From Treponema sp. (lineage in GTDB: Bacteria > Spirochaetota > Spirochaetia > Treponematales > Treponemataceae): a DNA stretch of 64,000 nt. Positions 5,090-57,843 of the stretch are shown piece by piece (the first letter of the stretch is position 1; each line of letters starts with the position of its first letter). The stretch spans positions 1,700 to 65,699 of the forward strand of contig JAEEYO010000013.1 of the NCBI GenBank assembly GCA_016288205.1, in the 5' to 3' direction. The translations under genes and the position numbers were made by a program. The notes under the pieces are model-generated. The model was not told the DNA's origin and did not search any database. It saw nothing but the letters and a program-made list of their open reading frames with translations.

Positions 5090-5134
5090 CTTTCCACTCT
5101 CATCTTTCCACTTTCCGTTTTCCACTTTCAACTC
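5090..5134 (-). repeat. Purine-tract intergenic repeat (GTTGAAAG/GTGGAAAAC/GGAAAG units), copy a
   Basis: Minus strand reads GAGTTGAAAGTGGAAAACGGAAAGTGGAAAGATGAGAGTGGAAAG. It starts inside the rluA-family stop codon. The last unit pairs with TTTTTCACTC at 5071-5080. Confidence 0.8.
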
Positions 5135-6093
5135 GAAAACCCTTTAGGCAAGGGAGCCACTATCTCCAGTCTCTCCCCGCTCACAGGATGGTCAAACGCA
5201 AGCGAAAAGGCATGGAGCATGATTCTTCCATTGTTCTCAGGAAATCCCACGGGACCGCCGTAAAGCTCATCCCCCACGATCGGAAGCCCCGAAAGCGACA
5301 GATGCACGCGGATTTGGTGGGTGCGCCCGGTCAAAAGAGTGCAATCAATGTACACATAGCCGCCGGATTTTTTCACCAACGTAAAATCAGTACGCGCAAA
5401 CTGACCGCCACGGCTCTCAGGCAGCACACCGATTTTGCATCTTGCGGATTTCGGCGAGACTCTTCCTATATAGTTCTCCACAAAAAAGCTTTCCTTGACT
5501 GGAGTTGATTTTTTCACGGCACACACGGCACGGTATTTTTTCACCGCCGTATGATTTTCGAACATCGCATGAACCGCATTGTTCACGCTCCGGCTCTTGG
5601 TAAAAAGAAGCGTCCCGGAAGTCTCCCTGTCAAGCCTGTGCATGATTCCCACGTAAGGCGGATTCCTGAGCGACGGATTTTTTTTCCAGAGATAGTCCAC
5701 CGCCGCCTGATGCATGTTGCCCCTTCCCTTCACAATGGTCTCCTCGGTCGGAAAAAAAGCGGGCTTATTTACCACGAGCAGAAAATCATCCTCAAAAAGA
5801 ACGTCCTTTTCGGTAAGAGTAAAATCAATGTCATCGGGCTGCTTCTCATAGAAAAATTTCTCCATGCTGATTTCGGCACGCACCTTGTCCCCGGCCCGCA
5901 AAATCAATGATGGAACCCTGCACTGCCTTCCGTTCACAAACACGGCCCCCGCCACAAGAAGACGACGGATTTTTGAATTTGAGACCTGCGCCTGAGACGC
6001 ATCACCCGACTCCGAAAGCACCAGGGGAATTTTCTCCTGCAAAAATGAGATAACTGGGACTGATTTTTCAATCTTCCATTCGAACGCCGCCAT
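5128..6093 (-). CDS. RluA-family 23S rRNA pseudouridine synthase with N-terminal S4-like domain
   Basis: The catalytic motif HRLDRETSGTLLF is present, along with GRTHQIRVHL. Length 321 aa. Confidence 0.88.
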   Translation of the reverse strand: MAAFEWKIEKSVPVISFLQEKIPLVLSESGDASQAQVSNSKIRRLLVAGAVFVNGRQCRVPSLILRAGDKVRAEISMEKFFYEKQPDDIDFTLTEKDVLFEDDFLLVVNKPAFFPTEETIVKGRGNMHQAAVDYLWKKNPSLRNPPYVGIMHRLDRETSGTLLFTKSRSVNNAVHAMFENHTAVKKYRAVCAVKKSTPVKESFFVENYIGRVSPKSARCKIGVLPESRGGQFARTDFTLVKKSGGYVYIDCTLLTGRTHQIRVHLSLSGLPIVGDELYGGPVGFPENNGRIMLHAFSLAFDHPVSGERLEIVAPLPKGFSS

Positions 6094-16519: not shown

Positions 16520-16525
16520 CTTTTA

Positions 16526-16558
16526 AGGACTGCTCAAATCGGGTAGTCCTTTTTTTTA
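16526..16558 (+). terminator. Rho-independent terminator after tRNA-Leu
   Basis: Stem AGGACT...AGTCCT followed by T9. Confidence 0.65.
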
Positions 16559-16660: not shown

Positions 16661-19321
16661 TCAGCGCCCTAAAAGGCCCTTGCCCTTCTTTGTAATGCCG
16701 TCGAGCAAACCGCCCGCACCTTCCGAAGTTCCGTCCAGAATCTTGTCGGTAAGTCCTCCGAGTCCCTCCTTCAGATTGTCAGGAACCACATCCGAGACAG
16801 CGTCCTTAACTGCAGCCTTCGCCGCATCGGTCTTTTCCGCAATCACTTCCTCAGCCTTTGCCTTTGCCTCGTCAATCTTCTTGTTCGCCTCTTCCTTAAG
16901 TTTCGCCTCAATCTCAAGTTTTTTCTTCTCCAGGATTTTCTGTACGTCGGCAAGTTTCATGTTCTGCAAGTCGATGTCGCCCTCAATTCCAAGAAACTCC
17001 TTCGCCTTTACCAGATACTCGTTCTCCGAGTTGTTGAGTATGTCCTGGATTTTCGCAATGGCAGCCTTCTTCGCATCCCTTCCCGCTTCCAGCACAATGT
17101 TCACCAGAGCCTTAACGAACTGCTCGCCTATGTTTCCTTCCAAATCAAGATAGAGCCCGCGGTCCTTCGTGTACCCCACGTCATATCCGAAATCCAGATT
17201 GTCCACCGACGCAAGACCGATGTTGTAATATTTCGTCACAAGCTCGTTGTTGAATCCGTCGCTGGAAAGAGAAACGGGAGCAAGCTTGGCATATCCCTGA
17301 GCGGTAAATCCGGTCTCGTCCGCCGTCGCACCAAAAGAAATCAGCGCGTCACCCTTTACGGAAGGAACACCGCTCTTTGTCGCAATCCGGCTTCCGTCCA
17401 CATCCACCTTGTATCCGGTACCTGTATATTTCGCAGTGACAAGCGGATTCGTAGTCGCACGCCTGAAATCAAGCACAAGATTTCCATCATGACGCACATC
17501 CTTTATGTCAAGCGCAAGCTTAGCTTCGGTAGGTCTGTTGCGCACGTTCTGGTCGTTCGTAATCTCTGTGATGGAGCCGTCGAATCCAGTTCCTGAAACC
17601 TTCACGCGTTGAATCAAAAAGCTCGGATATGCCGCGGTAAAATAAAAATCGGTTCCGGGAGAACGCTTGCTCACTTTCTTCGGCTTTTCCTTTTTCTCCT
17701 TTGACGCGGATTTTGCCTTGAGTTCCCTTGCAAGCTCCAGTCCGTCCATCACATAGGGATAGTATTTTCCGAGCAGATTGCACACGAGGGTGTCAGCCGC
17801 ATGCATGGCAAGTCCGTCCAGATTCGCGATCGCACCCGTAATCGTGGTAAGACGCTCAACAATATAATCGTAGTCGCTTTTTGCTGTGTCCGCAACCTTT
17901 TTCGCCATGTCATTTACGGAGACCGCATCTTTTTTCACATCCTCCACGACAAGTTTCATCGCAGCCTCAAGAACCTTGCCCTGCTCCACAGCCGCAGAAA
18001 TTTTCTCCAGCGCGGATTTCAGCTCGGCCACATCGGATGCCTTTCGGATGTCGTACATCTTCACGTTGATTGTCTGCAGCTCCTTTACTGAATCAGCAAA
18101 GCGCATGACTTCCGCCTTCATCTCCTCCGGCTTGGCCTTCCATTTCTCCACAAGCTCCTGAGCCATCGCAATCGCTTCCTGAGCGACTTCCGGCGTGTTG
18201 ATGTTGTCCTGCAGAGTTTTGATTATGCTGTCAATGTCGCTTCCACCCAGCAAGTCATAGGCCTCGTTTTTGAGCTGCTCAATGGAGTTGTTTATCCTTG
18301 CCTTGATTTCCCTCACGAACGGAGACTCAGCCTTGGGCACATTCGGAAGCTCACAACTGTAAGTGCGGTCGGTGTTCCACGCAATTCCGCTGGCCTCAAG
18401 ATTTTCCGCGACAAAGCGTTTTTTCAGAAGCTGCACAAGATTGAAATCCACCTGGATGCGCTGCACCTCAAACAGATTCTTCATCACCGAATCCTTGTTG
18501 CCCACTTGAATTCTTCCTATTGTAATTGAGGTATCAAGAATCCTTACGTCCACCCAGTCAATGTCGGTCCTTGCCTTGAATATGCCCTCACATGCCGACT
18601 TTATTGCGTTGCGCACAATCCTGTTTTTATTCGCAAGCACAAAAGACACGGCACCGACCAAAAGCCCCACAAGCACTGCGAGCGGAATCAGGCGGACTCT
18701 GGCCTTGTTCTGTTTTTTGATTTCCTTCGCAATGAACTTGAACTTCTTGACTTCCTTTTTGGAAAACATGAGTTCCTGGGGTATGGCAAGTTTCGTCGGC
18801 TTCTTCGGATTTCCACCCTGCACAAAAAGCGCGCTGACAGATTTTCTGTCCTCAGGTATATAGATTTTCCTGATTATTTTCCGATGGAACGAGCGCGGGG
18901 AATAAGTGCCCTTGAAAATTGCAGGAAGCTTGTCCCTCGGAATGACCTTCTTGGACTCATCCTCCTCCTTTTTCAGCACTTCGTTTTCCTGAGCCACAAC
19001 ATCCTGCACGCCCGCGGACACAAGTTCCTTTTCCTCCAGGGAAATAACCATAGTCTCTTCTTCCGCAGGAGGTTCTTCCTCAGCAGGTGTTTCTCCCTCA
19101 TTAGTCTCAACCGACGCAGGTTCATCGCCCGGCACTGTTTCTTCGCTCGGTGCAGTTTCTTCGCTTGGCACAGATTCTTCATCCGCCTTGGCTTCTTCCT
19201 CACTGGTCTCAGCCGAAATTTCATCCGAAGTTATCTCGTTGAAATATGAGTCGTCGCCGTCGTCAAAACCCTCGGGGGGTATCTTTTTTTCATCGGGTTC
19301 AAGATTTTCGTTTTCTTCCAT
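16661..19321 (-). CDS. Large single-pass membrane protein of unknown function (possibly TIGR03545/AsmA-like)
   Basis: 886 aa. The N-terminal ~200 aa are E/D/S/P-rich. A K-rich stretch and a TM helix (LIPLAVLVGLLVGAVSFVLA) follow, then a ~600-aa domain and a C-terminal K/E/A-rich coiled coil. The family assignment is from memory only. Confidence 0.45.
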   Translation of the reverse strand: MEENENLEPDEKKIPPEGFDDGDDSYFNEITSDEISAETSEEEAKADEESVPSEETAPSEETVPGDEPASVETNEGETPAEEEPPAEEETMVISLEEKELVSAGVQDVVAQENEVLKKEEDESKKVIPRDKLPAIFKGTYSPRSFHRKIIRKIYIPEDRKSVSALFVQGGNPKKPTKLAIPQELMFSKKEVKKFKFIAKEIKKQNKARVRLIPLAVLVGLLVGAVSFVLANKNRIVRNAIKSACEGIFKARTDIDWVDVRILDTSITIGRIQVGNKDSVMKNLFEVQRIQVDFNLVQLLKKRFVAENLEASGIAWNTDRTYSCELPNVPKAESPFVREIKARINNSIEQLKNEAYDLLGGSDIDSIIKTLQDNINTPEVAQEAIAMAQELVEKWKAKPEEMKAEVMRFADSVKELQTINVKMYDIRKASDVAELKSALEKISAAVEQGKVLEAAMKLVVEDVKKDAVSVNDMAKKVADTAKSDYDYIVERLTTITGAIANLDGLAMHAADTLVCNLLGKYYPYVMDGLELARELKAKSASKEKKEKPKKVSKRSPGTDFYFTAAYPSFLIQRVKVSGTGFDGSITEITNDQNVRNRPTEAKLALDIKDVRHDGNLVLDFRRATTNPLVTAKYTGTGYKVDVDGSRIATKSGVPSVKGDALISFGATADETGFTAQGYAKLAPVSLSSDGFNNELVTKYYNIGLASVDNLDFGYDVGYTKDRGLYLDLEGNIGEQFVKALVNIVLEAGRDAKKAAIAKIQDILNNSENEYLVKAKEFLGIEGDIDLQNMKLADVQKILEKKKLEIEAKLKEEANKKIDEAKAKAEEVIAEKTDAAKAAVKDAVSDVVPDNLKEGLGGLTDKILDGTSEGAGGLLDGITKKGKGLLGR

Positions 19322-38464: not shown

Positions 38465-38537
38465 CTGGGACGGCTGGATTCGAACCAGCGGAATGACGGC
38501 ACCAAAAGCCGTTGTCTTACCACTTGACGACGTCCCA
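38465..38537 (-). tRNA. tRNA-Gln (anticodon TTG); no encoded CCA
   Basis: Hand-folded. Acceptor stem TGGGACG/CGTCCCA (U1:A72), anticodon stem ACGGC/GCCGT with loop TTTTGGT, and T-loop GGTTCGAATCC. Confidence 0.85.
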
Positions 38538-38883: not shown

Positions 38884-39774
38884 TCAAACAAGTACGGATT
38901 CCCACTGACCGGATAGTAAGTCTTTCGCCAGCAAAGCCCTGCGTCTATCACTAAAGACCCCGAATATAGTAGAACCCGACCCTGACATATCAACAAAATC
39001 CGCACCGGAAGCCCTCAAAGCATCCAATGCCTGCTGAATTTTGGGATACCGTTCCGCAACAGGAGCTGCAAAATCATTAATGAAAGACCATTCCCGTACC
39101 GACCTGCAGTAAGTTTTCTCCAGAGATTCCGCAACGCGGCTCTCACGGTTCCCAGGATGCAGGAGCTGCCATTCATCCACAAGTGCATACGCGTCCTTAG
39201 TGGAAACTGACACGCCCGGAAAAACCAACAGAATCGAACAATCAGTCCGGCTTTCTATCGGCTCAATTACTTCCCCGCGTCCCCTTACAACAGCGGTAAA
39301 ACTCTCCCATTCCGAAAGCTTCCCTTCCCTTTCCTCCAGTGCCCTGGTAAAAAAGAAAACGTCGCTTCCAACCTGCCCCGAAATTTCTTCCAAAGCAGAA
39401 TGTTTCAAATGTGTGCCGAAAATAATATCGATGGATTTTAAAAAAGAAGATGAATCACTGGATCCGCCCCCCAATCCACCGCCGGCAGGAATATGCTTCT
39501 TCACTTTTACGTGAACATTTTCCCTTATGCCAGTCAGCACGCAGAAAGCTTTGTATGTCCTTTGAAAAGTATTGTCTTCCGGCAGATTCATACCCTCACA
39601 GTCCACAACGCACCGGCCGTCATTTCCGCCGTCCCTGTGAACGCTTATTTCATCACAAAGATTGACGAGCGTAAAAATGCTTTCGATGTCGTGAAAACCG
39701 TCAGCCCTTTTCGGAAAAACCCTGAGTCCAAGGTTGATTTTCGCGGGTGCCAAAGCGGTAATACTTTCTAACAT
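38884..39774 (-). CDS. ispE: 4-diphosphocytidyl-2-C-methyl-D-erythritol kinase
   Basis: APAKINLGLRV N-terminus and the GHMP kinase motif PAGGGLGGGSSD. Confidence 0.92.
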   Translation of the reverse strand: MLESITALAPAKINLGLRVFPKRADGFHDIESIFTLVNLCDEISVHRDGGNDGRCVVDCEGMNLPEDNTFQRTYKAFCVLTGIRENVHVKVKKHIPAGGGLGGGSSDSSSFLKSIDIIFGTHLKHSALEEISGQVGSDVFFFTRALEEREGKLSEWESFTAVVRGRGEVIEPIESRTDCSILLVFPGVSVSTKDAYALVDEWQLLHPGNRESRVAESLEKTYCRSVREWSFINDFAAPVAERYPKIQQALDALRASGADFVDMSGSGSTIFGVFSDRRRALLAKDLLSGQWESVLV

Positions 39775-39813
39775 ACACTATGCATTATACAAATTTGCAA
39801 AATAATGTCAAGA

Positions 39814-39900
39814 GGGAAAGCAAGTTGAAAGTTGAAAGTTGAAAACGGAAAGTGGAGAGTGGAAAGCTGGACATTTCTCACTCCTCACTCCTGACTTCTG
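39814..39900 (+). repeat. Purine-tract intergenic repeat, copy b, with downstream pyrimidine-rich partner segment
   Basis: Plus strand reads GGGAAAGCAAGTTGAAAGTTGAAAGTTGAAAACGGAAAGTGGAGAGTGGAAAG, then TTCTCACTCCTCACTCCTGACTTCTG. It lies between the MCP stop and the ispE start. Confidence 0.8.
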
Positions 39901-41971: not shown

Positions 41972-42043
41972 CGGTCCCTACGGGAGTTGAACCCATCTTT
42001 AAAGATTGAGAATCTTTCGTCCTAGCCGATAGACGAAGGGACC
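41972..42043 (-). tRNA. tRNA-Glu (anticodon CTC); no encoded CCA
   Basis: Hand-folded. Acceptor stem GGTCCCT/AGGGACC, anticodon stem AAAGA/TCTTT with loop TTCTCAA, and T-loop GGTTCAACTCC. Confidence 0.8.
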
Positions 42044-42051
42044 AATATAAG

Positions 42052-42122
42052 TTCCCCAAGGAGGATTCGAACCCCCACAGTCAGAACCAGAATCTGAAGT
42101 GCTACCATTACACAATCGGGGA
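42052..42122 (-). tRNA. tRNA-Gln (anticodon CTG); no encoded CCA
   Basis: Hand-folded. Acceptor stem TCCCCGA/TTGGGGA (U1:A72, one G-U pair), anticodon stem TCAGA/TCTGA with loop TTCTGGT, and T-loop GGTTCGAATCC. Confidence 0.8.
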
Positions 42123-42138: not shown

Positions 42139-42167
42139 ACTATATAACATTGCACATTTTATGTCAA
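42139..42167 (-). promoter_or_regulatory. Sigma70 promoter for the tRNA-Gln/tRNA-Glu pair
   Basis: Minus strand reads TTGACA, a 17-nt spacer, then TATAGT. The -10 hexamer ends about 17 nt upstream of the tRNA-Gln 5' end. Confidence 0.6.
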
Positions 42168-42234
42168 GGACTTTTACAAAAAAATCACAATTTTTTTCAG
42201 AAAAATTTTCACCTCCACCTGAGCGACTAACAGC

Positions 42235-44223: not shown

Positions 44224-45558
44224 TTAGTTGTGGAAGTACATGACCTGCGCGCCAGAAGGCTCCGTCACATTCGCAACATCGCGTCCGGTCGAAGGATCCG
44301 TCGTTACAATGACACGCGCAACGGCAAGTCTGAGTCCACCGGCCTCCATCTTATAGAAGAAATTCACGTCCCTCGCGTCTCCGTTGAACGCAAAGCTCAG
44401 GATTCCGTCCCATTTTCCGCGCAGATTCTTCGGCACAAAGTACTTGGACTCAACCGTTCCCGATGTCTTCGCGTCCATGCTGATAACTCCGGGCTGAAGG
44501 TTCTCGAATCCAGTCCAGCGGAAGAGATTGTTTCCGGAGAAATTCATGTTTCCGTAGTTGGAGCTGCTGTAGCTCGGTCCGAATTTCACCAGGCTTGAGT
44601 ACACCTTTTCGCGCCTTGATTTTTCCGACGCAATCAGAGTGGGCACGTCATCCTCAATGGTAATGAAATAAACGCTGAAAGGCCGTCCCGTGTCGTCGGT
44701 GTAGCGAATCAGTATGGTGCTCTCATTTCGTATGGTCATCTGGATGGACGTGTTGTTGAAGCGGTAGATGTGGTCGCCAGTCTTTGTCACACCCTCGTAC
44801 GGAACCTCAATGTCAACGTTGGAGAGCTTGAGCTTAAGCATACCGGTGTCGCTTCCGGGATCGAATCCGTAATCATCCTGCATGTATTTCAAATCAATCT
44901 CGCGGTTGTTGATCATCTTCGCGTAATACTCCGGGTACCACAGCGTTGCAAGGGCAATGTCAAGCAGGTCGTCCTTTTCCTGAATGTCCACAAGCACTTC
45001 CTCGGTAAATTCATAAGAACCGTCGCCGGCCATCTGGAACGTGCGGAGATTGTAGCTGAAACACCATCCGGACACACCCGTGGACGTAAGCACCTGATAC
45101 CAGTCTCCCTCAAGCTTCTGCCGTCCCACCGTAGGAATGTCGCCTTCCCCGGTAACAATCGTCCTGATTATCTCTCCCTTACGCAAACGGTAGACCTGTT
45201 TCGCTATGTTCGTAGGCTCCTTGCGGATTGGAAGTCCGTCAATTATGGAAACCGCATACTGCTGATTGTAAGCCGCGCGTGAGGCAGCAAGTTTCTTCGC
45301 CTTTCCCTTGGACGTTGGAGCCGTAATCTTCCACAGGGGAATCTCCACTCTGTCCTCGCTGTCGGGAACTCCGATCAGGTAGGTCTTGGATATGTTTGAC
45401 TTCATGAATACTGGGACGACCTTTCCATCCGGAATCTGCCGCTCAGGGATATTCCACAAAACAACGCTGTAACCGATTACACCGCTGGAACAAGAGACAA
45501 GGGCCGTCAAAAAAGAAAATGCAAGGACGGCAAAAAATGCTGTATTAAATCGTTTCAT
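44224..45558 (-). CDS. Lipoprotein of unknown function with a bacterial SH3-like segment
   Basis: Lipobox LTALVSCSS. The SH3b-like stretch is GLPIRKEPTNIAKQVYRLRKGEIIRTI...GDWYQVLTSTGVSGWCFSYNL. Confidence 0.5.
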   Translation of the reverse strand: MKRFNTAFFAVLAFSFLTALVSCSSGVIGYSVVLWNIPERQIPDGKVVPVFMKSNISKTYLIGVPDSEDRVEIPLWKITAPTSKGKAKKLAASRAAYNQQYAVSIIDGLPIRKEPTNIAKQVYRLRKGEIIRTIVTGEGDIPTVGRQKLEGDWYQVLTSTGVSGWCFSYNLRTFQMAGDGSYEFTEEVLVDIQEKDDLLDIALATLWYPEYYAKMINNREIDLKYMQDDYGFDPGSDTGMLKLKLSNVDIEVPYEGVTKTGDHIYRFNNTSIQMTIRNESTILIRYTDDTGRPFSVYFITIEDDVPTLIASEKSRREKVYSSLVKFGPSYSSSNYGNMNFSGNNLFRWTGFENLQPGVISMDAKTSGTVESKYFVPKNLRGKWDGILSFAFNGDARDVNFFYKMEAGGLRLAVARVIVTTDPSTGRDVANVTEPSGAQVMYFHN

Positions 45559-45594
45559 GGGAGGGATTATATCAAATTTAAAGAAAATATTCTA

Positions 45595-45739
45595 GTGGAA
45601 AGATGAAAGTGGAAAACGGAAAGTGGAAAACGGAAAGTGGAAAACGGAAAGTGGAAAACGGAAAGTGGAAAACGGAAAGTGGAAAGTGGAAAGTGGAAAG
45701 ATGAGAAGCGGGAAAATAGAATCTCACTTCTCACCTTCC
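45595..45739 (+). repeat. Purine-tract repeat, copy c: tandem array with terminal hairpin
   Basis: GTGGAAAGATGAAA, then 5 exact copies of GTGGAAAACGGAAA, then 3 copies of GTGGAAA(G), then TGAGAAG...CTTCTCA hairpin arms. It lies in the intergenic region between two minus-strand genes. Confidence 0.9.
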
Positions 45740-45748
45740 AATTGTCAA

Positions 45749-47365
45749 TTACATCTTTGACCTGGCAACGCGGAATCCGTTGTAGTCGTGGCGTGAGTCA
45801 GGGTCATTGAGTCCACGGCATGCATTGCGGCAGTTTCTTGACCAGCTTGAGTGTCCACCACCACGGAGAACTCTGTCATCATCGTAGTCACCGGAAGCTC
45901 CCGTCGGATTTGTCTGTGCGTAGCTTGAGTAATCTCCATGGATGTCCCAAACCCATTCCCAGACGTTTCCTGTCATGTCGTAGATTCCAAGCTCGTTCGG
46001 CTCTTTTTCACCAACATCATGCGTACTGTACGCGTTGTCATCATACCAAGCAACGGAATCAATATCGGAGCTTCCGCTGTACTTGTAGCCTCTTGAACGG
46101 TTTCCTCCACGTGCCGCATATTCCCATTCAGCCTCGGTCGGAAGACGATATCCGTTTGCGGATCTGTCCATGCGGATGTCACCGCGGATTGTATTTCCAC
46201 GGCAGGGTGTGTAGCTCCATGAAGAGGGATCCGTAACGCCGTCAATGGTGTAAACCGGAGCAAGACCTTCCATAATACTGAGCTTGTTGCAGAAAACAAG
46301 GATGTCGTACCAGCTAACATTCTCTACAGGACGCAAATCACCGTCATACTCGCTGGGTCTGTTTCCCATAACGCTTTCCCACTGCTCCTGGGTCACTTCC
46401 GTCGCACCCATGTAGAACGTGTCCAGTGTGACAGAATGGATCGGAACCTCATCATCATCTCCGTCCTCGTCTCCCATCCTGAATGTGCCGCCCTCAACGA
46501 GAATGAACTTCATCTTTGCCTTGAATTTCATTCCGACGACACGCACCGCATTAGCCTTTTGTGACTGCCCGAAAGCGACGAGCTCCACACCGTCAAGGCT
46601 CACGGGAATCACGTCCCTTCCGTTCACGAGATTGATTGCTTTAAGGACCACGGTGGACTTACCTGCATCGATGAGTCTCATGTTCTCGCGGCTCACGTTC
46701 GTTACGGACCATGAGTACATATAGCGGCTCTCGTCACTGATTGGATCGAAGCCCCACTTGAGCTCGGTCTCTGGAAGATTGAAAAGCAGCTTTCCCTTTG
46801 CGTTTACAAGCTTGGCGGAAACCGTGTACTTTCTGTCCTCGGGATTATTCTTGAGCGGAAGCCTGTCGCTTCTGTAGCCGGCCCAGTCCTCAGTCCATGC
46901 CGCACGCCATCCTGAATACACGACATTTTTCAGCTCCGCATATTTGTTTGAAAGACCCTTGGTGATTGAGGCAGAATAGCTCGCCGTCTTTGCAGCCATG
47001 TCAAGTCTTCCTTTCACGAAACCGTTGCTCTTAAAATAGTAGGGACAGTGCAGGTTCCAGAAATCATCGTACTCCTCCGCAATAGCCATCCAACCGTCGT
47101 AAATGTCAAACTCGTCCATCTCGCCATATCCTGGCTTTCCGCTTTTAAGGGTGTCGGCAAGTTTCTCGTAAGCCTCATAAGCACCCTCAGCCTTTTCGCT
47201 CGGCTCAGCTTCCATTGCATCATAGTAGGAAGAAAGCGCGTTCACCCACTTTCCCTGCTCCTCAAATGATTTTGCCTCCGCAAATTTTTTCTGATACGTC
47301 GCATTCTGTGCAAAAAGTCCCGCCGCCACAAACAGGACGGAAAGAAATGTCACAATTTTCTTCAT
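45749..47365 (-). CDS. Exported protein with C-terminal formylglycine-generating-enzyme (SUMF1/EgtB/PvdO, PF03781) domain
   Basis: Contains GGTFRMGDEDG, VSWYDILVFCNKLS, YRLPTEAEWEYAARGG, GNVWEWVWD and RVLRGGG. The start was set to ATG 47365 (MKKIVTFLSVLFVAAGLFAQ, with GGAGG upstream). Confidence 0.82.
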   Translation of the reverse strand: MKKIVTFLSVLFVAAGLFAQNATYQKKFAEAKSFEEQGKWVNALSSYYDAMEAEPSEKAEGAYEAYEKLADTLKSGKPGYGEMDEFDIYDGWMAIAEEYDDFWNLHCPYYFKSNGFVKGRLDMAAKTASYSASITKGLSNKYAELKNVVYSGWRAAWTEDWAGYRSDRLPLKNNPEDRKYTVSAKLVNAKGKLLFNLPETELKWGFDPISDESRYMYSWSVTNVSRENMRLIDAGKSTVVLKAINLVNGRDVIPVSLDGVELVAFGQSQKANAVRVVGMKFKAKMKFILVEGGTFRMGDEDGDDDEVPIHSVTLDTFYMGATEVTQEQWESVMGNRPSEYDGDLRPVENVSWYDILVFCNKLSIMEGLAPVYTIDGVTDPSSWSYTPCRGNTIRGDIRMDRSANGYRLPTEAEWEYAARGGNRSRGYKYSGSSDIDSVAWYDDNAYSTHDVGEKEPNELGIYDMTGNVWEWVWDIHGDYSSYAQTNPTGASGDYDDDRVLRGGGHSSWSRNCRNACRGLNDPDSRHDYNGFRVARSKM

Positions 47366-47501
47366 ATATACCTCCACTTTTTTATAAAAGAGCAAGTTTA
47401 AAAACCCTCAGACTTTTGAAACCTTCTCTAACCACAATCTGATTACATCATAATCAAGTATGTCCAATATGTCAATTATCAAAAAATTATTGGCTCCCCT
47501 C

Positions 47502-53216: not shown

Positions 53217-53261
53217 GTTGAAGGATGAGAAATGATAGGTGGAAGGAAAAATTCTTTCCAC
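53217..53261. repeat. Purine-tract repeat, copy f, forming a compact hairpin between convergent genes
   Basis: GTTGAAGGATGAGAAATGATAG, then GTGGAAGGAA-AAA-TTCTTTCCAC (a 10-bp stem with one G-U pair). It fills the gap between the GPH stop and the EamA stop. Confidence 0.75.
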
Positions 53262-54149
53262 TTATCGCTCTCTCTTCTCTTTTCGCCCATTGTAAATAAA
53301 TACCAAAACTGCAATGCCAATGATCAGTGCATATCCCAAAATGCTCAGCAAATCCGGGATCTGACGGAAAGCAATGAAACCGAGGATGGCGCTGAAAATC
53401 ACCATGAAATATTCGTAGATGCTCACCTTGGAAGCAGGTGCGTTGAAGTATGCCCCGGTAATTCCGAACTGACCGCCGCTCGCTGAAAGTCCAGCCAAAA
53501 TAAGAAATAGAAATTGCTTCAAAGACATGGGACTCCAGAACACAATCATAAGCGGAAGACAGAGCAAACATGAGAACACGGAGAAAAACAAAATGATTAT
53601 GCTGCCGTGCACTTTATAGACATGACACTTTCTTACAAAAGAATACGCGAATCCCGCACCCGCACCGCCAAGAAATCCTGCGAGGCCAGGAAGAACCTTG
53701 GTAAAATCAAATGACGGCTTCATCACAAGGAGCGCACCGGTAAACGCACCGCACAAAGAAAGGATTGAGACAGTGCCCGGTTTCTCTCCAAGGAAAATGA
53801 AGCTTCCCAGAATTGAAAAAAACGGAGACATCTTGTTGAGCATGGAAGCATCCGAAATGGGGATATGGTCCAGCGCATAAAAATTCCCGAAGATTCCCAC
53901 GGTTCCGCACAGCGCACGCAGAAGGATAAATTTAAATGCAGGCCTCTCCACTTTCATCGCATCAGGATTTTTTCTCCACTCACGCAATGCGATTACAAAA
54001 GCAAAGAGAGCCGCAATCAGATTCCTGAAAAATGCTTTCTCAAAAAATGGCAAATCACCGGCAGCATGTACGAACATCCCCATGAGCGCAAAGCAAAATG
54101 ATGAGAATATCGCAAAAAAAATTGCCCTCGCAAGATTATTTTTTGTCAT
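53262..54149 (-). CDS. EamA/DMT-family transporter
   Basis: 295 aa with about 10 TM helices and the duplicated EamA architecture. Confidence 0.8.
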   Translation of the reverse strand: MTKNNLARAIFFAIFSSFCFALMGMFVHAAGDLPFFEKAFFRNLIAALFAFVIALREWRKNPDAMKVERPAFKFILLRALCGTVGIFGNFYALDHIPISDASMLNKMSPFFSILGSFIFLGEKPGTVSILSLCGAFTGALLVMKPSFDFTKVLPGLAGFLGGAGAGFAYSFVRKCHVYKVHGSIIILFFSVFSCLLCLPLMIVFWSPMSLKQFLFLILAGLSASGGQFGITGAYFNAPASKVSIYEYFMVIFSAILGFIAFRQIPDLLSILGYALIIGIAVLVFIYNGRKEKRER

Positions 54150-55584: not shown

Positions 55585-55613
55585 TTGTCAAACGGAGTTT
55601 TATGGTGTACAAT
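55585..55613 (+). promoter_or_regulatory. Candidate sigma70 promoter immediately upstream of the TGS-uridine kinase gene
   Basis: TTGTCA, a 17-nt spacer, then TACAAT. The -10 ends 7 nt before the ATG at 55621. Confidence 0.4.
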
Positions 55614-55620
55614 GTTAAAT

Positions 55621-57273
55621 ATGAAGAAGATTACTATTACATTCCCCGATGGCTCGTCCATCCAGGTTGATGACGAAATCAGACCCATGACCTTGCTCAA
55701 CAGGCTGGGACCGCAGGATAAAAAAATCATGGCCGTAAAGGTCAACAACGAGATTCTTCCGCTGGATTCCGTGGTGGACATAAGCTGCACTATGGAGCCG
55801 GTTTTTGAGGAGACCAAGGACGGCGCAAGGATTTACCGTCGCTCGCTTTGTTTTTTACTCGCAACCGCGGCACACAATCTCTTTCCGGGTGCAAGACTTC
55901 TCGTGGGTCACTCCCTGGACTACGGCTATTACTACACGCTGGACACAGGCAAGCCCATCTCGCCCGAACAGATTGCACAGCTCAAGGATGAGATGCTCAA
56001 AATCGTAAAGGACGACGAGCCGATTCTCACGGACTATATCTCATATCAGGAAGCATGCTCGATGTTCGAAAATCTGGGACTGATTGAGACACGCAAGCAG
56101 CTGAACTACCGCACGCCATCCCGCGTAAAAATCAACACGCTGAAGGGATTCTCCGACCTTTATTTCGGTCCCTTGGTTGGAAGCACCGCCGAGCTTGATG
56201 TCTTTGACCTCATGCCGTATCAGGAAGGATTCCTCCTCCGCTATCCCAAGCACGAGACTCCCGACCGCCTCCCGGAATTCCAGGACCAGCCGAAGCTCTT
56301 TGAAATCTACAAGCGGTACAAGGACTGGGGAAAACGCCTCAACGTAACATCCGCCGCAAGCCTTAACCAGCTGATTCACGAAAGAAAAGTGAATGATTTC
56401 ATCGACATAACCGAAACCCTCCAGGTAAAATGCATTGCCGACATCGCCGACCAGATTCACAGCCGCAAAACCGCAAGGGTCGTCCTGATTGCAGGTCCCT
56501 CGTCTTCTGGAAAAACCACGACGAGCAAAAAACTCGCATTGCAGCTGCAGGCCATCGGATATGTTCCCAAGGTAATCAGCCTTGACTCATACTACCGTGG
56601 ACGCGCCGAGACACCGAAGGATGAGAATGGAAATTATGACTACGAGTGTCTTGAGGCTTTGGACGTAAAGCAGATTAATGAAGATTTGCTCTCGCTTTTT
56701 GACGGAAAGACAATCGACGTGCCATGCTACGACTTCCACGAGGGAAAGCGCTATTACAAGGGAGAGACCATGAACCTCGGTCCAAACGACATCCTCATTA
56801 TGGAAGGAATCCACGGACTGAATGACAAGCTCACTCCCCTCGTACCGCCGGAACTCAAATTCAAGATTTATCTTTCCGCACTGACCCAGCTGAATCTTGA
56901 CGACCACAACCGAATTGCCACGAGCGACAACCGTCTTATCCGGCGAATCGTAAGGGACGCACAGTTCAGGGGAAAGAGCGCGGCAGGTACAATCTCCATG
57001 TGGGATTCCGTGCAGAAGGGTGAACGGCTCCATATCTTCCCGTTCCAGAACAATGCGGATGCCATGCTCAACACGGCCCTTGACTACGAGCTTTCCGTGC
57101 TTAAAGTCTATGCGGCGCCGCTTCTGAGATGCGTCACTCCAATGGAAAAAGAATATGGAGAGGCATGCCGTCTTCTGACCTTCCTTGACAACTTCAGCAC
57201 CATTCCGGCAACCGCGGTTCCAAGTCAGTCAATAATCAGGGAGTTTATTGGAGGATCTGCGTTCCACTACTGA
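55621..57273 (+). CDS. Fusion protein: ThrRS-like TGS plus second-additional-domain N-terminus and uridine kinase/PRK-family C-terminus
   Basis: The N-terminus KITITFPDGSSIQVD...AVKVNNEILPLD...YRRSLCFLLATAAHNLFP is ThrRS-N-like. The P-loop is LIAGPSSSGKTT, and the PRK-family core is IMEGIHGLN. Alternative in-frame starts exist at 55585 and 55612. Confidence 0.75.
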   Translation: MKKITITFPDGSSIQVDDEIRPMTLLNRLGPQDKKIMAVKVNNEILPLDSVVDISCTMEPVFEETKDGARIYRRSLCFLLATAAHNLFPGARLLVGHSLDYGYYYTLDTGKPISPEQIAQLKDEMLKIVKDDEPILTDYISYQEACSMFENLGLIETRKQLNYRTPSRVKINTLKGFSDLYFGPLVGSTAELDVFDLMPYQEGFLLRYPKHETPDRLPEFQDQPKLFEIYKRYKDWGKRLNVTSAASLNQLIHERKVNDFIDITETLQVKCIADIADQIHSRKTARVVLIAGPSSSGKTTTSKKLALQLQAIGYVPKVISLDSYYRGRAETPKDENGNYDYECLEALDVKQINEDLLSLFDGKTIDVPCYDFHEGKRYYKGETMNLGPNDILIMEGIHGLNDKLTPLVPPELKFKIYLSALTQLNLDDHNRIATSDNRLIRRIVRDAQFRGKSAAGTISMWDSVQKGERLHIFPFQNNADAMLNTALDYELSVLKVYAAPLLRCVTPMEKEYGEACRLLTFLDNFSTIPATAVPSQSIIREFIGGSAFHY

Positions 57274-57276
57274 TAA

Positions 57277-57305
57277 GTGGAAAGATGAAAGTGGAGAGTG
57301 GAAAG
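57277..57305 (+). repeat. Purine-tract repeat, copy d
   Basis: GTGGAAAGATGAAAGTGGAGAGTGGAAAG begins 3 nt after the stop of the uridine kinase fusion gene. Confidence 0.8.
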
Positions 57306-57374
57306 ATTTGAAATGACATATTGAACGTAGCAAAATATCTTTGAAGTGATTCTTTACTGCGTTCAGAATGAAAT

Positions 57375-57417
57375 CTCTCCGTTTTCAGCTTTCAACTTTC
57401 CGTTTTCCGCTTTCCAC
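57375..57417 (-). repeat. Purine-tract repeat, copy e (inverted relative to copy d)
   Basis: Minus strand reads GTGGAAAGCGGAAAACGGAAAGTTGAAAGCTGAAAACGGAGAG. It overlaps the last 10 codons and the stop of fliJ. Confidence 0.8.
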
Positions 57418-57843
57418 TTTTGCATGCTGCTGGGATGTCACGACATCATCCACAATCTTTTCGTCCTGCTTGTTCATGGCCGCCTGCCATTCCTCATACT
57501 TGTGCTTTTTGAGTTTGTCCAGGACCTTCACCTTTTGCATACACTGACGAACCACTTCCCTTTTCTTTTCGGCGAGCAGCTGGAGTTCTGCAAGCTCAGC
57601 GAGGAGACCTTCTTTTTTTTGATCAAGGAAAATAAAATAATCCTGAGTCTGATGCCAAACATTAAACTCAGATGAACTGTCGGAATAAGATGAGAAATTA
57701 ACACGCTCCTGCGCAATCTGCTCAAGAGACCTGTTCACGCGTGCAATCTCGGCGTTTACTTTGCCCAAATCAAGCTCTGCCTGATCGAGCTCAAAATTCC
57801 GGAGGTCCAAAATTTTCTGCATTGAAAAAACAAAATGCTTCAT
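57385..57843 (-). CDS. fliJ: Flagellar export chaperone FliJ
   Basis: 152-aa coiled-coil protein directly downstream of fliI. The N-terminus FSMQKILDLRNFELDQAELDL is FliJ-like. Confidence 0.7.
   Translation of the reverse strand: MKHFVFSMQKILDLRNFELDQAELDLGKVNAEIARVNRSLEQIAQERVNFSSYSDSSSEFNVWHQTQDYFIFLDQKKEGLLAELAELQLLAEKKREVVRQCMQKVKVLDKLKKHKYEEWQAAMNKQDEKIVDDVVTSQQHAKVESGKRKVES

Follow-up and report, generated by a model that had tools for sequence, protein, structure and literature searches.

A tandem heptanucleotide repeat family at transcription-unit boundaries in Treponema, with a probable terminator or insulator role

Here we report that a purine-rich tandem array in the genome of a Treponema species is a real, fast-changing run of 7-base repeats. 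The array belongs to a family of tandem heptanucleotide simple sequence repeats (SSRs), built from NNKGARA units, that form hairpin arms at transcription-unit boundaries and probably terminate or insulate transcription there. It lies at 45595–45706 (+) of a 64,000-nt stretch of DNA (GenBank assembly GCA_016288205.1, contig JAEEYO010000013.1, positions 1,700 to 65,699 of the forward strand; hereafter the window), where a preliminary description had picked it out as the largest member of a dispersed repeat family. We favour a terminator or insulator role because the arms have the polarity of the three canonical terminators in the window, because heptads fill the equivalent gaps between genes and because the hairpin at the focal locus precedes a C-rich, G-poor tract. 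The array itself is a slippage-type hypervariable variable-number tandem repeat (VNTR).

The focal array consists of 16 uninterrupted, head-to-tail heptads, purine-rich on the plus strand, and was delimited by Tandem Repeats Finder (TRF) and a scan for the unit class. The units run GTGGAAA, GATGAAA, five copies of the pair GTGGAAA ACGGAAA, three copies of GTGGAAA and a final GATGAGA. TRF assigns it a period of 14 (7.6 copies, 94% matches, score 177) and also a period of 7 (15.3 copies). Direct reading of 45595–45739 bears out the earlier account of the plus strand, namely GTGGAAAGATGAAA, five exact copies of GTGGAAAACGGAAA, three of GTGGAAA and then GATGAGAAG..CTTCTCACCTTCC, and the count of 15 GGA motifs is the same. 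The 7-nt period is strict, with unit positions 4–7 (GARA) conserved and positions 1–3 variable. Read as minus-strand RNA, the array spans 112 nt with a composition of 48% U, 37.5% C and 4.5% G, and contains 33 YC dimers; the suggestion that minus-strand transcription would give a CU-rich tract fits the gene layout described below. The units are contiguous and without spacers, for which reason a CRISPR array was dropped, as the preliminary description had also concluded. A G-quadruplex repeat (at least four runs of at least three G) was set aside too, as the units hold GG only.

Both genes that flank the array lie on the minus strand, along which the order is stop codon, 8 nt, hairpin, 112-nt array, TAGAAT-17-TATAAT, 7 nt and ATG. 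The upstream gene encodes an FGE-sulfatase-domain protein (45749–47395 (−), stop at 45749–45751) and the downstream gene an SH3-domain lipoprotein (44224–45558 (−), ATG at 45558), which served as the anchor for the strain comparison. The array has its purine units on the non-coding strand, 36 nt upstream of the start codon, and directly abuts the −35 hexamer of a promoter-like site of the SH3-domain gene, read from the sequence (TAGAAT-17 nt-TATAAT, 45566–45594 (−)). The focal hairpin (45694–45740 (−)) begins 8 nt past the upstream stop. As minus-strand RNA it folds at −23.8 kcal/mol (z = −4.79), with 0 of 200 shuffles folding as well, and on this strand the 7-bp stem with bulged extensions proposed earlier is confirmed. 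Its 5′ arm, GGAAGGUGAGAAGUGAGA, is made of two degenerate purine heptads, its 3′ arm, CUUCUCAUCUUUCC, continues into the array, and its tail is the U/C-rich ACUUUCCACUUUCC, which lacks a U-run.

The −10 hexamer TATAAT ends 7 nt before the ATG of the SH3-domain gene, with CCCTCCC as the spacer and no Shine–Dalgarno sequence (45556–45594 (−)). At ispE, next to another array of the window, TATAAT stands 9 nt before the ATG, again with no Shine–Dalgarno sequence and with GCATAGTGT as the spacer (39772–39811 (−)). Such short distances suggest that the SH3-domain and ispE mRNAs may be leaderless or near-leaderless. A phase-variation contingency locus was considered for the focal array and rejected, as the array lies upstream of the −35 hexamer, neither inside an open reading frame (ORF) nor between −35 and −10; because it is periodic and so placed, gain or loss of units is not expected to act as a switch for the downstream gene. 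At fliJ and the RluD-like gene, described below, arrays affect no more than the final codons or the stop. The FGE-sulfatase neighbour also raised the possibility of a diversity-generating retroelement, which was dropped because the neighbours of the other arrays are unrelated.

In the module that we propose as canonical, a stop codon would be followed by a purine arm of about four heptads, a loop and a pyrimidine arm, giving the polarity of the A-tract, stem and U-tract of a bidirectional intrinsic terminator. RNA polymerase on the minus strand would leave the FGE-sulfatase gene and meet a stable hairpin, whose 3′ arm runs into 112 nt of U/C-rich, G-poor RNA. Hairpin and tract together may then end or insulate transcription ahead of the SH3-gene promoter, either by hairpin-dependent termination or by loading of Rho on the C-rich tract. 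A C-rich, G-poor tract is of the type on which Rho loads. Units would be gained, lost and swapped in 7- or 14-nt steps by replication slippage or unequal exchange, and the 16-unit focal array may represent one expanded arm.

The gaps between genes are consistent with this proposal. The window has three strong canonical terminators of the A-tract/stem/T-tract kind (3896–3864 (−), 16525–16551 (+) and 35789–35758 (−)), all in other gaps, and five gaps hold heptad elements instead. Significant hairpins are found at 45694–45740, 57272–57420 and 53233–53267 (z = −4.8 to −6.6). Like bidirectional intrinsic terminators, the heptad elements are positioned at the ends of transcription units and have a stem flanked by A-rich sequence on its 5′ side and by U-rich sequence on its 3′ side, whichever strand is read. 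Unlike intrinsic terminators, they have no separate GC-rich stem or uninterrupted U-run, and their stems are long (up to 28 bp) and roughly 40% GC, A and U triplets being interspersed. Of the earlier hypothesis of a REP-like, lineage-specific element with a terminator or mRNA-stability function, the terminator-like part is supported by where the elements lie, by the hairpin statistics and by the polarity of the arms. The element is, however, neither REP-like nor lineage-specific: it is a tandem heptanucleotide repeat of a described kind (PMC4692102, PMC4679880, 10.1101/309039), and its units recur in four phyla among the matches listed.

The focal array is one of a family. Taking an array as at least three heptads of the unit class RHKGARA, we found five in the whole window (16, 6, 6, 6 and 4 units), against a chance expectation of 0.01 from order-2 Markov simulations, and the string GTGGAAAR occurs 30 times where 6.45 are expected. 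The repeat family of the preliminary description is therefore real. All five arrays lie in the non-coding 9% of the window or overlap a stop codon, and because the window is 91% coding, a composition artefact, which had been named as what would undo the family, is excluded. When units contain T, three in a row give stops in all three frames.

In three of the arrays the purine strand is the sense strand of the gene that each one follows. Six heptads at 5091–5132 (−) have the sense orientation of an RluD-like gene (5128–6093), whose TGA stop lies inside the first heptad, GTTGAAA (5128–5132 (−)); an 11-bp local hairpin comes next, and then the promoter-like site of rplU (5042–5013). Four heptads at 57277–57304 (+) start 3 nt past the stop of a uridine-kinase-like gene (55585–57273), and six at 57376–57417 (−) have the sense orientation of fliJ (57385–57843). 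These two arrays are the 5′ arm and the partner arm of one long hairpin (57272–57420; z = −6.3 and −6.6 on the two strands), with an inner palindromic core of about 44 nt, TGAACGTAGC...ACTGCGTTCA, between them (57322–57365). The last 11 codons of fliJ and its TGA are array-encoded (57385–57417 (−)), yielding KVESGKRKVES before a stop supplied by a GCTGAAA unit, and the FliJ model covers the protein to residue 138 of 152, before the array-encoded tail.

The other two, the focal array and one of six heptads at 39824–39865 (+), are each flanked by two minus-strand genes and have their units on the non-coding strand, 42–45 nt past the upstream stop. The 39824 array is placed between a gene for a methyl-accepting chemotaxis protein (stop 39911) and ispE (start 39774), and it ends 12 nt upstream of the −35 hexamer of a perfect TTGACA-16-TATAAT site (39811–39784 (−)). 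TRF and a pairing test place its pyrimidine partner arm, 2.9 copies of CTCACTC, at 39877–39896 (+), and the array gains −22.3 kcal/mol by pairing with the downstream sequence versus −3.7 with the upstream sequence. The earlier statement that every copy follows a stop or lies between convergent genes accordingly needs amending: each of the five is either non-coding or overlaps a stop, but these two are set between co-directional genes. The inconsistent orientation remarked on at the same time resolves into a strand rule, by which the purine units belong to the coding strand where they closely follow a stop and to the non-coding strand where they closely precede a start, as published for Xanthomonas heptamers. 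A further copy reported at 53217–53261 is a hairpin of degenerate heptads rather than a clean array; its 16 pairs (GGTGGAAGGAA/TTCTTTCCAC, 53233–53267, z = −4.78) lie between convergent MFS and EamA transporter genes, and it is the only family member that passes a simple terminator scan. One reported at 42208–42221 comes down to two loose units, not above chance.

The same heptad units are found in at least four phyla. A scan of species-representative genomes with the 21-mer GTGGAAAACGGAAAGTGGAAA returned at least 110 loci. Among the matches listed, Bacteroidota (mostly rumen metagenome-assembled genomes (MAGs)) account for 60, Acidobacteriota (Pyrinomonadaceae and Chloracidobacterium) for 22, the candidate phyla radiation (CPR; Peregrinibacteria, Peribacteria and Gracilibacteria) for 15, Treponema for 5, Firmicutes for 4 and others for 4. 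Loci with GTGGAAAACGGAAAGTGGAAA also carry arrays of the sister units ATTGAAA, GTTGAAA, ATGGAAA and GAGGAAA, and inverted doublets are common. Array length has its mode at 4 units, also among the arrays that the probe did not select (3 units in 23 arrays, 4 in 50, 5 in 7 and 6 in 5). Plain gene calling put half of the arrays in ORFs, with real and spurious frames inseparable; tests based on frame spanning and on stop codons were therefore used, in which a sense stop had to close a frame of at least 100 codons and random positions served as controls. Of 203 purine arms, 46 begin no more than 15 nt from a sense stop (7.3 expected), and the corresponding antisense count is 13 (7.6 expected). The purine arm pairs downstream: pairing with the 70 nt on that side yields at least 15 kcal/mol in 68 of 197 arrays, and pairing with the 70 nt upstream does so in 6 (Wilcoxon p = 2.5e-16). 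The 21-mer was not found in 2.9 million viral contigs; 15 IMG/VR contigs (L123–L137) contain (GTGGAAA)3, some of them in several copies (L124 and L137).

Some of these genomes show other arrangements of the units. RUG12038, a Bacteroidetes MAG, and a Prevotella MAG contain long intergenic mosaics in which several heptad families adjoin (L008 5650–5860, L051 6800–6930, L052 7190–7400 and L027 2000–2110), with units that include GTGGAAA, ATTGAAA, GGTGAAA, GAGTGGC, GTTAAGA and TTCTAAA. In Treponema MAGs, the junction of a fused CobT-CobU-like ORF coincides exactly with an array, and a RelB/DinJ-like protein has two arrays in its acidic tail (L061 3519–5765 (−); L036 6910–7671 (−)), from which it follows that arrays at gene ends can become coding linkers.

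Comparison of strains shows how fast the arrays change. An identical 444-amino-acid SH3-domain protein is encoded in six other assemblies. In one of these the array is that of the window. In the rest it is made of different unit types, such as TTTCATC alternating with TTTCCAC, and numbers from about 8 to more than 12 units; four of the six contigs break off within the array. The TAGAAT-17-TATAAT site is kept in all strain variants. The gap that contains the 39824 array measures 136, 129 or 114 nt (differences of 7 and 22 nt) in four contigs whose IspE is identical. Because unit number and type differ beside identical flanking proteins, the array is a slippage-type VNTR, as had been hypothesized. 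Strain look-ups with the uridine-kinase-like and RluD-like proteins returned no record. A metagenome scan for relatives found two. In a relative whose SH3 protein is 93% identical, the promoter is kept, the upstream gene is different and there are only about three degenerate heptads, TTTCAAATTTTCGTTCCGCAC, which look like a seed of the kind that may have expanded in the lineage of the window. In one strain variant (L112, 520–585), a non-homologous 24-bp hairpin (z = −4.47) occupies the same place after the stop, so that a hairpin leading into the U/C-rich array is retained even though the hairpin sequence has been exchanged. This hairpin is related to the palindromic core at 57322–57365, and hairpin modules thus appear to be exchanged between loci.

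Several observations weigh against a terminator or insulator role. The focal hairpin is not called by the simple terminator scan and has no clean U-run, and the 39824 and 5091 regions as a whole fold no better than shuffles (z = −0.25 and −0.61). The SPADE survey acknowledges that no function is known for tandem heptamers at large (10.1101/309039). The intergenic rule, moreover, fails in rumen Bacteroidales, where heptad arms lie in frame inside essential genes, an arrangement seen outside the window only; a terminator would be harmful there unless translation masks it. An MBOAT/DltB-like protein gene contains two inverted arm pairs, and a Mur ligase gene contains two pairs around native conserved segments, one with an SPGIP motif (the Mur ligase and MBOAT/DltB-like loci are L065 1285–2598 (+), L074 (minus strand) and L037 1536–3038 (−)).

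These in-frame arms also offer a view of how the modules evolve. In Mur ligase orthologues that are 80% identical, the arms are at the same positions and the unit types differ on both sides (GTGGAAA-type versus GTTAAGA-type), with complementarity preserved. Arms that change type together and still pair need selection for pairing or a form of copying such as quasi-palindrome template switching, which argues that heptad arms may be more than passive microsatellites. One might go further and regard the NNKGAAA heptad hairpins as a single cross-phylum system rather than as independent simple repeats, on the strength of the module of about 28 nt, the unit types shared by rumen Bacteroidales, Acidobacteriota of the Blastocatellia type, CPR bacteria and Treponema, the stop-proximal and in-frame sites and the co-changing complementary arms. 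We consider this unlikely. If true, it would point to an unrecognized copying or homogenizing mechanism, such as dedicated template switching or an enzyme, would imply that an RNA or DNA structure is under selection, and could account for the excess of tandem heptamers that has long been noted in prokaryotes.

Four other accounts of the arrays have to be set against a terminator or insulator role. They could be a neutral or selfish by-product, made and homogenized by slippage and quasi-palindrome template switching wherever they are tolerated, at gene ends, in linkers and in loops. We regard this as possible, if rather on the doubtful side. It would account for the extreme turnover between strains, for the close relative with an intact promoter and no array and for the coding-region arms that change type on both sides together, as template switching would give; no function is known for any heptamer family, either (10.1101/309039). 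Tolerance alone, however, predicts neither the 5′-purine/3′-pyrimidine polarity nor the 6-fold excess after stops, nor does it explain why non-homologous hairpins hold the same place in two strains or why lengths peak at 4 units without geometric decay. The peak at 4 units, like the common inverted doublets, the in-frame occurrences within genes, the swapped hairpin module at the focal locus, the identical unit types in four phyla among the matches listed and the few viral contigs with (GTGGAAA)3, would also suit a mobile hairpin element of about 28 nt, similar to a miniature inverted-repeat transposable element (MITE), a REPIN or a PATE and copied by a transposase in trans. This strikes us as improbable: we saw no terminal inverted repeats, target-site duplications or conserved ends flanking the arrays, so that a MITE was rejected, and no transposase is linked to the arrays in the 64 kb of genome. 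Single units are not palindromic, in contrast to REPs, the 21-mer is absent from the viral contigs, and the Mur ligase arms flank native conserved coding sequence, which means that they did not arrive as one insert.

The strict 7-nt period, with GARA conserved at positions 4–7 and positions 1–3 variable, might alternatively reflect a multivalent platform for a single-strand nucleic-acid-binding protein, one per heptad (for example, a cold-shock-domain protein on the U/C-rich strand), that would tune mRNA stability or the abutting promoter. CspB binds T-rich heptamers one per protein, and cold-shock proteins (Csp), S1 and CsrA have been proposed for TAACTGA repeats (PMC4679880); the focal array abuts a −35 hexamer and the 39824 array is 12 nt from one. 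Strains and orthologues freely exchange one unit type for another, however, which argues against sequence-specific recognition, and the arms are usually base-paired rather than single-stranded; we consider such a platform highly improbable. We give least credence of all to the earlier idea of a plus-strand small RNA that would titrate CsrA, which is unsupported and, in our view, extremely improbable. Spirochaetes do encode CsrA, there are 15 GGA motifs in 145 nt, and ACGGA and GUGGA resemble the ANGGA core. Yet no plus-strand promoter-like site faces the array between 44100 and 45594, the array is antisense to both neighbouring genes, the plus-strand fold leaves it unpaired with no GGA motif in a hairpin loop, and strains differ widely in its copy number. 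We found no CsrA signature in the window, and a search of Rfam, at the gathering threshold and at permissive E-values, returned only tRNAs and far-sub-threshold microRNA-like hairpins, with no match of the array to CsrB, RsmZ or any other family. The family is commonest in Bacteroidales and CPR bacteria among the matches listed, and to our knowledge CsrA is not found in either group.

To place the family among known repeats, we compared it with described systems. The GTGGAAA/ACGGAAA family had no description in the literature searched, where literal strings gave noise only (GTGGAAAG, for example, is part of the U6 promoter and of single guide RNA primers) and no paper had the tandem strings in a bacterial setting. 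Tandem heptamers as such are the most abundant long SSR, and also the most abundant intergenic periodic repeat, in many prokaryotes, and a slippage origin has been proposed, with 'no clear clue' to function (PMC4679880 citing Mrazek 2007; 10.1101/309039). The closest parallel in architecture is GGGAATC of Xanthomonas, together with GGGGA(C/T)T of Nostoc (Rehm et al. 2015, PMC4692102). In Xanthomonas, arrays are mostly of 4 units, with 70–75 convergent plus/minus pairs per genome; the G-rich strand is coding within 50 bp of, or overlapping, a stop and non-coding within 50 bp upstream of ORFs; and variation between close species is strong (PMC4692102). The present family has in common with these heptamers the 7-nt unit, the 4-unit mode, the convergent pairs, the strand rule at stops and starts and the rapid change, and differs in having GG rather than GGG, in sequence and phyla and, in some hosts, in its in-frame location within genes. 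Because the units hold only GG, the G-quadruplex rationale is inapplicable and the shared architecture cannot depend on G-quadruplexes.

Other families are more distant. Hairpin polarity and a stop-codon rule are, as far as we know, not described for the STRR repeats of cyanobacteria. These repeats (CCCCAGT and others) are likewise tandem, intergenic heptamers with a proposed slippage origin and a use in fingerprinting, and their unit sequences differ (Mazel 1990 and Mrazek 2007 via PMC4692102 and PMC4679880; 10.1101/309039). TAACTGA of Beggiatoaceae, Cyanobacteria and Bacteroidetes is, like the present units, a heptamer shared by distant phyla; horizontal transfer is suspected with no mechanism known, and some Bacteroidetes have long arrays of it with other heptamers (MacGregor 2015, PMC4679880). 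It differs in lying mostly just upstream of starts, in forward orientation, with stops in every frame, whereas GTGGAAA-type units are open in six frames. REP, BIME and REPIN elements, mobilized by RAYT, are also short, dispersed and extragenic and form hairpins as inverted doublets after genes, but REP units are imperfect palindromes of 20–40 nt with a conserved head and are genus-specific, in contrast to the direct, non-palindromic, cross-phylum 7-nt units here. Assignment to this class was rejected, as the arms are direct heptad repeats and only arm pairs are complementary; no RAYT gene is linked to them in the 64 kb of genome. Rickettsia palindromic elements are insertions of 100–150 bp, in frame within protein-coding genes and translated. 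The Bacteroidales relatives resemble them in being in frame and coding, and differ in that two 28-nt arms flank native coding sequence. With CsrB and RsmZ sponge RNAs, finally, the focal array shares many GGA motifs in a short stretch, unlike them lacking a dedicated promoter or terminator and GGAs in loops, lying on the wrong strand for the gene layout and varying in copy number. The array represents a new sequence family of a known but functionally unexplained kind, the intergenic tandem heptanucleotide repeat: its 7-nt units run head to tail, are intergenic in the window, vary between relatives and have the GGGAATC architecture.

The window also holds three tRNA genes (38465–38537, 41972–42043 and 42052–42122 (−)). 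The pair at 41972–42122 is preceded by TTGACA-17-TATAGT at 42167–42139, just downstream of the loose GGTGGAGGTGAAAA at 42208–42221. At 19056–19180, tandem repeats of 15 nt and 18 nt (TCTTCCTCAGCAGGAGGT and CAGTTTCTTCGCTCGGCA) lie inside an 886-amino-acid ORF (16661–19321 (−)), where they presumably specify a repetitive stretch of the protein.

As VNTRs, the arrays can serve directly as markers for strain typing, and the focal array is one reason why assemblies break. The arrays probably mark where transcription units end in a genome that has few canonical terminators, and their 5′-purine/3′-pyrimidine polarity turns this into a testable terminator hypothesis; the co-varying in-frame arms of Bacteroidales give a second handle on mechanism. 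A G-poor family here reproduces an architecture that has been attributed to G-quadruplexes in Xanthomonas. The value of the finding accordingly lies not in the focal locus itself but in the cross-phylum distribution of the family, in an architecture independent of G-quadruplexes and in the handles that polarity and covariation provide.

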